Sequence record: KJ909655.1
Direction: 5' to 3' (one strand)
DNA length: 61,137 bases
DNA from: Escherichia Stx1-converting recombinant phage HUN/2013
Positions 18,001-21,000 of the stretch are shown here, piece by piece (position 1 is the first letter of the stretch; each line of letters starts with the position of its first letter). Position numbers: made by a program.

Positions 18001-21000
18001 ATGTTGTTGGTGGTGTGCTTGGTGCATTCAGCCCGATTGGCAGTGAGACGTCGGAAACACTGTCCGGGGCATTGCTGAAAAATGCAGCGCCGACCATTCT
18101 GCGTCCGTTTGCGAACCTTGCCATGAATGAAAACTTCATGGGGGCGCAGATTTACCAGGAGAACATGCCGTTTGGTACACCAAAACCTGACAGCCAGCTG
18201 GGAAGACGTTCAACGCCAGAAGCGTACAAGGCGTTTGCATCCTGGCTGAATGCGTTCTCAGGTGGCAGCCAGTACCGTCCCGGCGCGGTGGATATCACAC
18301 CGGAATCGCTGAAATTCTGGATTGACTATATCTCCGGAGGGACAGGGCGCTTCATTTCCAAAACCACGGATGCGGCGGTGAAATCGCTGAATGGTATTGA
18401 TATACCGGAACAGCAGGTGCCCTTCCTGGGGAAAATTTCGGGGGAGGTGATGCCGTATGCAGACCAGCAGAAGATGTACGACCGGATGACAGAGATTGCG
18501 CAGTATCACGCAGAGCTGAAGAGTCTGACCGGTGCAGAAAGAACGGCGTTCATTGACGAGAACAACGGAAAATTGTCGATGAACGGGCTTATGCAGGATA
18601 CCCGGAAGAGACTGAAGGATTTGCGTAAACAGCGTGATGCCATTTACGCCGACAGTACTCTCAGTCTGGCGCAACAGTCGGCGATGGTGAAATCGGTAGA
18701 GCGGGATATGAAAATTGCCGTGGATCGGTTTAACCGCGAGTACAACAAAAAAGTGGGAGTGGATTAACAGAAATGGCCCCGTACGGAAGTGCGGGGCTGA
18801 TTAAGAAATAAACACTCATTGACCTGTAATAACCGGAGCTATTAACATATAGTCAGAAGAGCATTTCATGTGATACAGAGAGCCGATTTATGTTTAATGA
18901 AGAAAAAGTTGCGCAAATGGCAGCGTATTTGCTGAAAAAGCATGGCGGATCTATGCGTTTCATTAAGCTGAAGCAGCAACGGTAATGGCGAATAGCATTT
19001 ATGAGCAAAATAATCTTGATATGTTATTAGGCGATCTGATGTAACCGGGATGATGTTCACCCCTTATCGCCGGGGAACAATACCGGCAATCAGAATTGCG
19101 GATGGAACTATTCAGGCCCACGATGATATCGATGAGGAGTTTTTTCAGCCAGTATTGGATGGCTTTCTTATATCCAAATATACGCCATTTGACATCCTCC
19201 ACGCCCTGAAGGACGGGGTTTTACAGCGCACCGGATAAGATTCGGTGTTTTGTTGAAAAATACTGTGATAACAAACAGAAAACCCGTCAGTAAGACGGGC
19301 TTAGCAAGCTGGGACGGTTACTTTAATAATTTCAGTGCCTTTACATCCACTTCAACACTGCTCAGGTCTTTATCAATTTCACCCTCAATTCTTACTTTGT
19401 CTTTCGGAGAAACATTCTGCCCGGCCCATATGCTGTCATCGATATCCGTGACAATTGTCCCGCTATTGTCACGAAACTCATAACGTTCATCACCCACTTT
19501 TTTAACGATGCTCCCTTCAAGGATAACCCATGCATCATCCTTCAGTTCTTTTGCCTGCGCTACTGTTGAACGCTCTGCTTCAGGCCCTTGGAAACCGCCC
19601 TGCTGTGCAAAAGCGCCAAAAGACACACCAGAAATAAGTGCTGCAATCAATACCTTTTTCATTCATAGTCCTCTTTCAGAGATGAACATTCAAACAGCAT
19701 TTTCAGTATGGTAAAGCGCGGGTGCGTTGAGGATGCCTGACACATCAGAGGTGGCGGGAGATTACTCCCCCGCTTGGTCTCTTACTTCTCAGATTCGTAG
19801 TCTACGAAGACAGCGACCTCCGTCTGACCGGTTCGGATTCGCACCTCGCAGAGGTCTTTCCTCGTTACCAGTGCCGTCACTATGACGGTTAAACAGATGA
19901 CGATCAGGGCGATTAACATCGCCTTTTGCTGCTTCATAGCCTGCTTCTCCTTGCCTTTCGGCACGTAAGAGGCTAACCTACATGTGTTCAGCATGGATTG
20001 AGCCTCAGATTAATGTTAAGCGTCTTGCCGGACGCGTAATGTTAACTGGGGCTTTTCTCTATCTGCCGTTGGTGTTCATGCCCGAGGCAGATAGCCTCAA
20101 GCACCCGCAGCAATTCTACTTAACTCTCCTTTTCCCGCAAACCGTTTTTATCTCCAGCGACAAATCGAATACACAACCAGCACCACCGCCATTACTGTTC
20201 CTACATTTGCGAATGCTTCAGGCCAGGTCATTGATTCACCTTCTGCTCAATATTTTTAAGGTCATTTTCCGCATACAGTATTGCAGTTCTTGCTGCCCGC
20301 AACCGTGCTTTGGTGTTCTTTTCTTCACGCTCGAGGCTGGCAACAGATTCTCGGAGCTGATCGTGTCTGTTATGAAGCTGTCTAATCTCTCTCACCACAG
20401 CCTCACCATCGTTCGCACACCGCAGAACATACTGAAAAGGGTCCACAACACATCCGCACTGCAAGCACAGGATAACGTGATCCTGTTCATGAACCTCAAT
20501 GGCCCGATGCTTACAGCTCTGTTGTGTGTAGTTTTTTCTGCCAGTTACTGTAATGTTCAGCAGCTTCTCTTCATCGCGCTTTGGCTGCACCAGTGTGATG
20601 ATATTATCGCCTTCATTTTCCATCAGTTCACCTCCTGCGGCGGTTCTGGTAGCGGCATCCAGTGTGACGGTTTCCACGACGCACCAGGAATTATCCACCC
20701 ATCATTAGCGTCAGGATGCCCCGGGATGTAAGTCGCCCACTTCATTCGCCAGTCACCTTTCCTGTCAAACTCCACGGCAACAAGAACGGCTGTTTTGGTA
20801 TCCGGCATTCGCTCACTACAACTTATCCAACCATCCGGAGTTACCGGAGAGTTGCCAGACAGCGCATTCTGCAACCGTTCCAGCTTAACGTATTCCTGAA
20901 CCCTGTTTCCGTCGCACGCCTGAAGCCATTGCTCAGCCTTTTGCGCATCAGTGTGAAAGGCACAAGTGCGACCGTCATCAAATTGCATTTCGTAGAGGTT

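Follow-up and report, generated by a model that had tools for sequence, protein, structure and literature searches.

Why would a Shiga toxin (Stx) phage carry, directly downstream of a toxin-antitoxin locus, a gene for a predicted periplasmic protein of the YgiW/YdeI stress family? The question is raised by the Escherichia Stx1-converting recombinant phage HUN/2013 (sequence record KJ909655.1), whose stretch of 61,137 nucleotides is the window analysed here, and by one minus-strand gene within it, which we call the BOF gene after the Pfam family of its product. Our analysis showed that, rather than standing on its own, this gene forms the distal half of a conserved hok/sok-BOF cassette, a point that was missed when the gene was first noted from the sequence alone (the original prediction), and the definition of this cassette is an addition beyond the existing annotation.

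The BOF gene is an open reading frame (ORF) with an ATG start and a product of 114 amino acids (aa) (Table 1). The protein matched the Pfam family BOF (PF04076) with an E-value of 5.1e-33 and 113.7 bits against a cut-off of 25.8, over positions 10-102 of the 103 in the profile, and it matched the NCBIfam model NF033674 (‘NirD/YgiW/YdeI family stress tolerance protein’) with 136.4 bits (cut-off 35). The sequence of the solved E. coli YgiW (PDB 1NNX) was matched with an E-value of 3.3e-29. With profile scores above the curated cut-offs across the domain, the protein belongs to the BOF, or NirD/YgiW/YdeI, family. We also calculated the ratio of non-synonymous to synonymous substitution rates (dN/dS), which was 0.04-0.25 within the clade of phage-type copies (dS up to 0.5) and about 0.1 against a 60%-identical relative from a metagenomic lambdoid prophage (locus L015); judged from these alignments, the protein evolves under purifying selection. 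Because the Pfam E-value is 5e-33 and dN/dS is in this low range, a chance ORF at 19318..19662 is excluded, and sequence comparison confirms a real gene for a YgiW-like stress-family protein of predicted secreted type.

The gene as such is already known by annotation. RefSeq names ECs1244, its counterpart in the Sakai strain (also ECs_1244), ‘YgiW/YdeI family stress tolerance OB fold protein’; other synonyms are VT2-Sap75, Stx2II_p070 and 933W L0136, several GenBank records use the label ‘protein ygiW precursor’, and PHROGs places it in phrog_1230, with function unknown. Taken alone, it is an ordinary accessory gene with existing annotation in 933W and VT2-Sakai, which are well-studied Stx phages. 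A literature search with its gene names and locus tags and with the Stx and lysogen context found no experimental study of the gene, and the only relevant match was an Irish genome-wide association study (GWAS) of Shiga toxin-producing E. coli (STEC) (PMC11950266), to which we return below.

An AlphaFold2 model based on 41 homologues had a predicted local distance difference test (pLDDT) score above 90 at residues 31-114 and low scores at residues 1-22. The strands of the model (residues 45-57, 60-65, 68-73, 89-98 and 103-113) and its helix (residues 76-79) form a predicted OB beta-barrel of five strands, capped by the short helix. When the model was compared with the PDB by Foldseek, the top match was 1NNX (TMt 0.92, 53% identity), and the matches after it were generic OB folds (RPA, Ten1 and the anticodon domains of tRNA synthetases). 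The N-terminus has the features of a Sec-type signal peptide, namely a KK n-region, a hydrophobic core with Kyte-Doolittle values of up to 2.6 and an AFA cleavage motif, with predicted cleavage between MKKVLIAALISGVSFGAFA and QQ. The crystallised YgiW chain begins at EQGGF, which is equivalent to the predicted QQGGF mature start. Inspection of the N-terminal sequence found no cysteine or lipobox. The predicted mature protein has 95 aa, an isoelectric point of ~4.6 and a net charge of about -6, and the signal peptide points to a periplasmic location. The original prediction had described a YgiW/BOF-family protein with a signal peptide and its own terminator, placed between a giant ORF and hok. 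Each of these points was borne out: the family by PF04076, NF033674, 1NNX and the modelled fold, the signal peptide by the features above, the terminator by an intrinsic terminator at 19302..19271 on the minus strand, and the placement by a 2806-aa ORF at 10347..18767 on one side and hokW at 19782..19937 on the other.

The position of the protein within its family is less simple than its name suggests. It shares 49% identity with YgiW of E. coli K-12 and 33% with YdeI, and its score of 110.8 bits on TIGR00156, the model of the YgiW subfamily, is a borderline pass (cut-off 108.15). Comparison with the K-12 ygiW locus showed that qseBC synteny is absent at the phage locus. In a neighbour-joining tree, the phage clade was sister to a third BOF group, with proteins of 126-130 aa, and stood apart from the branch of K-12 YgiW. 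On the grounds of 49% identity, missing qseBC synteny and a separate branch, we rejected a YgiW orthologue, and by these comparisons the phage protein is a paralogue of YgiW. A YdeI equivalog was also rejected, given 63.7 bits on NF007471 against a cut-off of 179 and the 33% identity. The proteins of the phage clade have lost 14 residues, which make up one of the two QGGF..GGFxGP repeats in the flexible N-terminal linker.

One copy departs from this picture. In a nin-region copy from E. coli (L011 5001..5342; P0002, CP024618; 113 aa, 92% identity), the cleavage region is scrambled, with GALHSRVVSGP in place of GAFAQQGGFQGP. This suggests local frameshifts and a possible loss of export in that strain.

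Such a copy raises the possibility that the BOF gene is a functionless passenger, which hitch-hikes with the hok/sok addiction locus and benefits neither phage nor host. The scrambled cleavage region would then be a sign of occasional decay; in addition, no phenotype is known, and E. coli already has two paralogues. However, the dN/dS values given above, both within the clade and against the 60%-identical relative, speak against this idea. Across 44 phage records, conservation of the protein is 99% or higher, and the signal peptide, the Shine-Dalgarno sequence and the terminator are all conserved, the terminator with a compensatory change. We therefore consider a gene without function to be quite unlikely.

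Next, we analyzed the surroundings of the gene in the fetched loci in which BOF was at least 80% identical and was preceded by at least 250 nt of upstream DNA. In 55 of these 55 informative loci, a hokW-like ORF was found 121-125 nt upstream of the BOF gene. The cassette occurs in three contexts, which are the b-region of Stx phages, the nin regions of lambdoid phages and a chromosomal islet free of phage genes. In Z903 (O157), a 98%-identical hok-BOF pair lies in the nin region of an unrelated lambdoid prophage, between P/DUF551 and DUF968/RusA, and the DNA that it shares with the window stops exactly after the T-run of the terminator (~19271) and runs upstream past hok. Other nin regions contain a variant of the cassette that is 81-82% identical, and an 80%-identical variant, whose BOF terminator has a compensatory stem change, occupies the islet, between the cytochrome c peroxidase/cytochrome b562 pair and mrp-metG. 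Even in L015, where BOF is 60% identical (128 aa) and stands behind a Hok that is 31% identical to HokW, the layout is the same: hok promoter, sok (Rfam, 110 bits), 3' stem-loop, fbi, spacer, BOF and terminator. The segment common to all contexts, of ~0.9 kb, begins a short distance upstream of the hok promoter, at ~20156, and extends to 19271.

This linkage is not a general property of BOF genes. No hok was found near BOF in any of 80 BOF loci from other species, nor in five other accessory BOF groups, and a general hok-BOF linkage was rejected on these grounds. The converse linkage also fails. Whereas 3135 E. coli records matched the hok 3' region, only 551 covered at least 80% of the BOF-containing query, so that by sequence matches most hok loci are without BOF. 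Another 33 phage records were hok-only, and their homology to the window was lost at ~19710-19720, the predicted 3' end of the hok mRNA. We considered a recombination breakpoint between hok and BOF and rejected it, as the divergence between cassette variants is spread across the entire cassette, with the hok coding sequence just more constrained. Between these variants, dS was 0.06-0.07 for hok and 0.35-0.52 for BOF, a five- to eight-fold difference. The low value for hok fits strong constraint by RNA structure and overlap on hok/mok/sok; conversion of the hok portion would fit it as an alternative (gene conversion).

Among phages, the BOF gene was found in 44-62 records, all of them 933W/Sp5-like, and most records named as Stx-converting phages were without it. 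The gene is variably present and lies in accessory locations, as expected of a moron or cargo gene. The original prediction of phage cargo is upheld by this absence from most Stx phages of the collection, by the varying positions in prophages and by the phage-free islet. A phage record named after ‘Actinobacillus’ and a P1-type (Punavirus) record were also among the megablast matches to the region, and the record of Escherichia phage P1 matched the hok/sok part only.

With its peptide, its sok RNA and its tac/fbi pairing, the upstream half qualifies as a genuine hok/sok type I toxin-antitoxin locus. The hokW-sokW locus of Sp5 has been validated experimentally as a toxin-antitoxin system of type I (PMC8621323). 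In a minimum free energy fold, the 5' sequence GGGUGCUUGAGG (20106-20095) was paired with CCUCAACGCACCC (19732-19720), with z=-6.3, and hok homologues in related loci carry PF01848 in precomputed annotation. The hok RNA of R1 is 398 nt long, and an RNA of this length starting at 20106 would end at 19709. Because the homology to hok-only records ends at the predicted 3' end of the hok mRNA, we delimit a BOF-specific unit at 19271..19709, with only 47 nt ahead of the ATG. Other RNA families in Rfam gave only sub-threshold chance matches over the BOF gene (sR2 and HgcC). The coordinates of the features are collected in Table 1.

Table 1. Features of the hok/sok-BOF cassette and an adjoining ORF in the window
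Feature	Position	Strand	Remarks
BOF/YgiW-like OB-fold protein, coding sequence	19318..19662	-	Sakai ECs1244, VT2-Sap75, 933W L0136
Predicted Sec-type signal peptide, residues 1-19, MKKVLIAALISGVSFGAFA	19606..19662	-	Cleavage before QQGGF; from sequence features
Intrinsic terminator AAGCCCGTCTTACTGACGGGTTT plus T-run, 9-bp stem	19302..19271	-	Exact 3' boundary of the shared cassette
Shine-Dalgarno sequence AAGAGGA	19669..19675	-	6 nt before the BOF ATG; kept in diverged copies
BOF-specific leader	19676..19709	-	47 nt with Shine-Dalgarno sequence and spacer (19663..19709), from the end of hok-type homology to the ATG
hok mRNA fbi element CCUCAACGCACCC	19720..19732	-	Pairs with 5' tac GGGUGCUUGAGG; delimits the hok unit at its 3' end
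hok 3' stem-loop GCGGGGGAGUAAUCUCCCGC	19754..19773	-	Putative stop for 3' processing, by analogy with the R1 hok model
mokW	19782..19994	-	Contains hokW; directly upstream of the BOF gene, same strand
hokW, 51 aa, type I toxin	19782..19937	-	Inside mokW
hok leader / sok region	19932..20106	-	Rfam RF01794, 113.5 bits (cut-off 59); hok mRNA 5' end at 20106
Putative hok promoter TTGCGG-16-TAGAAT	20113..20140	-	Read from the sequence; +1 at 20106
62-aa ORF (orf72 / VT2-Sap74)	19050..19238	+	Between giant ORF and BOF gene; own terminator 19228..19248

How might the BOF gene be expressed from this position? A sigma-70 scan of the minus strand between hok and BOF gave no match of at least 9/12 in the 119 nt upstream of the gene, and the best matches in a relaxed scan of this interval reached 7-8/12. 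An autonomous BOF promoter is therefore not supported. The nearest promoter is the putative hok promoter, and the only strong terminator of the hok-BOF stretch, which is conserved, follows BOF. Because the leader has 47 nt and no convincing promoter, BOF is probably co-transcribed with hok. Sp5 lysogens contain hokW mRNA without induction (PMC8621323). In the lysogen, BOF would be transcribed by read-through from the constitutive hok promoter, and the phage repressor would then have no influence on its expression. In lytic growth, its transcription would come from the early-left operon of pL in the Stx phage and from pR in the nin copies. Such coupling also bears on published work. A hokW-sokW::km deletion in Sp5 halves phage release, and no complementation was reported (PMC8621323). 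If BOF is co-transcribed, this allele could be polar on ECs1244, and, given its obligatory coupling to hokW-sokW, the same may apply to published hokW-sokW deletions in general.

Based on these features, we propose that the BOF gene is cargo borne on the hok cassette, which contributes a periplasmic factor for tolerance of envelope stress or antimicrobial peptides in the lysogen; as a whole, we give this explanation a probability of about 0.5. Phages of the 933W/Sp5 type would carry the gene as non-essential cargo in the distal part of the cassette, and its product would be exported by Sec as a small, acidic, soluble periplasmic OB-fold protein. There it may bind cationic antimicrobial peptides or other envelope ligands, and may associate with outer-membrane proteins or peptidoglycan. 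The result would be a higher tolerance of the lysogen to envelope stress, including antimicrobial peptides, oxidants, metals and acid. The proposal builds on the family, fold, export signal, cassette architecture and purifying selection described above, and adds to them the probable co-transcription with hok and a ligand and a phenotype that we infer.

The ligand and phenotype are suggested by what has been reported for other members of the family. SipA of Vibrio cholerae is a periplasmic protein with OmpA as an interaction partner; it binds polymyxin B and LL-37, and for survival of H2O2 and cadmium it is cross-complemented by the ygiW gene of E. coli (PMC6370654). Interactions of YdeI with OmpD and of YgiW with OmpF are also reported (PMC6370654). 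VisP of Salmonella binds peptidoglycan, inhibits LpxO and confers resistance to cationic antimicrobial peptides (PMC5053249). By homology to YgiW/VisP, YdeI and SipA, lysogenic conversion through tolerance of envelope stress or antimicrobial peptides is plausible (PMC6370654, PMC5053249), and the acidic predicted mature protein fits the binding of cationic ligands. By this analogy, the BOF gene is a candidate lysogenic-conversion factor for envelope and antimicrobial peptide tolerance in enterohaemorrhagic E. coli.

Several points weigh against this proposal. With only 49% identity to YgiW and 33% to YdeI, and with one linker repeat lost, the ligand or partner of the phage protein may differ from those of its relatives. 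E. coli already has ygiW and ydeI, and what BOF would add to them is unclear. In the literature, we found no expression, localisation or phenotype data for the gene. As to its transcription, a weak promoter-like match (7/12) lies 21-22 nt before the BOF ATG and is conserved in position. Moreover, Northern blots show hokW mRNA as a discrete species (PMC8621323), and therefore some hok transcripts end or are processed upstream of BOF.

If the protein does act on the envelope, it might instead serve in superinfection exclusion, as the receptor masking mentioned in the original prediction would imply: by binding an outer-membrane protein or peptidoglycan, it would block adsorption or DNA injection of incoming phages. 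Prophage accessory genes are often exclusion genes. Binding of OmpF, OmpD or OmpA from within the periplasm is described for family members, and binding of peptidoglycan for VisP. However, the protein is predicted to be soluble, with no lipobox or membrane anchor, and the surface-exposed loops of a receptor would be out of its reach. The cassette is also found in short-tailed Stx phages, in the nin regions of other lambdoid phages, thus in phages with different tails, and in the phage-free islet, which suggests that its function is not tied to one receptor or phage. We found no exclusion literature for the BOF gene, with PADLOC not scanned. Superinfection exclusion or receptor masking thus appears very unlikely.

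The constant company of hok invites another explanation, in which BOF is produced from the hok transcript and works together with Hok instead of being a general stress protein, and hok/sok-BOF is a three-part unit that acts in the envelope. Its periplasmic target would be the C-terminal part of Hok that is exposed there or the envelope damage that Hok causes, and BOF would either buffer leaky Hok in lysogens or tune Hok-assisted lysis and phage release after induction. Every member of the phage BOF clade is linked to hok at a fixed spacing, across translocations and down to 60% identity of BOF and 31% of Hok, while hok is absent from the 80 BOF loci of other species and from the remaining accessory groups. 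In addition, the family member SipA binds membrane-active peptides (PMC6370654), and the halved phage release of the Sp5 deletion could reflect a polar effect on ECs1244. If the three-part unit were real, part of this published deletion phenotype would be due to the loss of ECs1244. On the other hand, most hok loci work without BOF, as the 3135 and 551 E. coli records indicate, and hok-only phages exist. The hok/sok locus of R1 is likewise not known to have a BOF gene. Cloned hokW-sokW without BOF is a complete toxin-antitoxin pair (PMC8621323), and the predicted C-terminal tail of Hok is slightly acidic, like BOF itself and unlike the cationic peptides that are ligands of the family. The linkage could also be explained by a need of BOF for the hok promoter or by tight physical linkage. 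The dependence is one-sided, in that BOF is always with hok and hok is mostly without BOF, and it is more simply explained if BOF borrows the hok promoter. We consider a partnership with Hok unlikely, though it is the most interesting of the remaining possibilities.

The cassette may also shed light on an epidemiological finding. In the Irish case-control GWAS of STEC, an accessory gene ‘ygiW_2’ was present in 84% of cases with haemolytic uraemic syndrome (HUS) and in 66% of controls, and a mokC-like gene, ‘group_5720’, in 70% of HUS cases and 46% of controls (PMC11950266). The two behaved as a dependent pair with a combined adjusted odds ratio of 5.5, and the class with group_5720 only was rare; the authors regard them as two genes that may interact and do not note an adjacency (PMC11950266). 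Because the adjacency of hok and BOF is invariant in the loci that we examined, ygiW_2 and group_5720 are very probably the hok/mok-BOF cassette, a judgement made from our loci. If they are one cassette on Stx-type prophages, then the HUS signal would be recast as a prophage marker or a single locus, and not two interacting genes.

The window itself corresponds to a circularly permuted Stx2 phage with a short tail, of the 933W/VT2-Sakai (Sp5) type (Traversvirus). Over 25 kb, it matches Stx2 II and Stx1 converting phage with 100% identity, and its identity to 933W and VT2-Sakai is 99.8-100%. Read along the minus strand of the circular genome, the order is pL, N, cIII, gam/bet/exo, xis, int, attP, ant, DksA-like, DUF551, orf75, mok/hok, BOF and terminator, so that BOF is the last gene in the leftward early direction. 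With attP at ~23.2 kb of the window, integration separates the block from ant to BOF from pL, and this block then forms the right prophage end, which adjoins the rut genes in Sakai. On the other flank of the BOF gene, the giant ORF contains an LPD5 domain. The intrinsic terminators at 19228..19248 (plus strand) and 19271..19302 (minus strand) are convergent, ~30 nt apart, and mark the junction between a plus-strand unit (giant ORF and orf72) and the leftward early and accessory block. Just upstream of the hok promoter, a hydrophobic ORF of 27 aa, MTWPEAFANVGTVMAVVLVVYSICRWR, lies at 20148..20231 on the minus strand, with a good Shine-Dalgarno sequence and an ATGA overlap with the orf75 stop. 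It is conserved in the nin copy of Z903, and in other contexts a different hydrophobic ORF of 34 aa, MSDDLSLAMEGALAVISVVGVYCLVVFLMDRMGN, occupies its position. A Pfam search found no family for orf72, orf75 or the 27-aa and 34-aa peptides.

Finally, we compared the BOF gene and its cassette with known systems. The phage protein resembles YgiW/VisP (1NNX) in its Pfam and NCBIfam family, its modelled OB fold (TM 0.92), its Sec signal peptide, its acidic mature form and the QGGF..GP linker motif. Unlike YgiW, it has 114 rather than 130 aa and one linker repeat fewer, and its gene is found not beside qseBC but behind hok on a phage. YdeI/OmdA of Salmonella and E. coli is likewise a BOF-family protein of periplasmic type, which gives resistance to antimicrobial peptides via an interaction with OmpD/OmpF (PMC6370654), but identity (33%) and the NF007471 score (63.7 bits against 179) set it apart. 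The best mechanistic model for the phage protein is V. cholerae SipA (VCA0732), by family and by its published description (PMC6370654), although its gene resides on the chromosome and its induction depends on a two-component system.

In the tree, the nearest subfamily comprises other accessory BOF genes, which are 55-67% identical and also mobile; they are found in prophages of the P0047 type, on plasmids, at loci flanked by insertion sequences (IS), and as NcrY. Their proteins differ from the phage clade in a length of 126-130 aa and in retaining both linker repeats, and the genes are not linked to hok. The P0047 protein (130 aa, 55% identity, hok-less) is encoded at 3501..3893 in L068-L072, at the end of lambda-like E. 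coli prophages, directly after J-lom-stf-tfa and beside host genes. It is listed in 120 blocks of the collection, in a position like that of a classical moron. Of the other groups, P0013 is near ProQ/FinO and ccdAB, and P0010 and P0023 are IS-flanked. In total, 1127 plasmid records had BOF homologues, including NcrY and copies on Salmonella plasmids of 55-94 kb. The match to NcrY, a ‘nickel resistance OB fold protein’ at 34.7% identity, raises the question of whether the phage protein could be a factor for tolerance of nickel or cadmium, and YgiW and SipA mutants are indeed cadmium-sensitive (PMC6370654). However, the similarity to NcrY is low, and whereas ncrY sits by annotation in ncr operons, the phage locus has no adjacent metal-efflux genes. 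A dedicated role in metal tolerance is accordingly highly improbable.

As the cargo gene for envelope tolerance that we propose, BOF is comparable to lambdoid morons such as lambda bor and lom, which are also non-essential genes for envelope proteins, variably present, with their own terminators and in accessory regions (b-region and nin). Classical morons have their own promoter, whereas BOF has none evident and is fused to hok/sok. The upstream half of the cassette, with its Rfam score of 113.5 bits and the tac/fbi pairing of its ends, corresponds to R1 parB and to hokW-sokW of Sp5. Canonical hok/sok loci end at fbi, whereas in the window and in L015 a gene for a predicted secreted protein and its terminator are appended.

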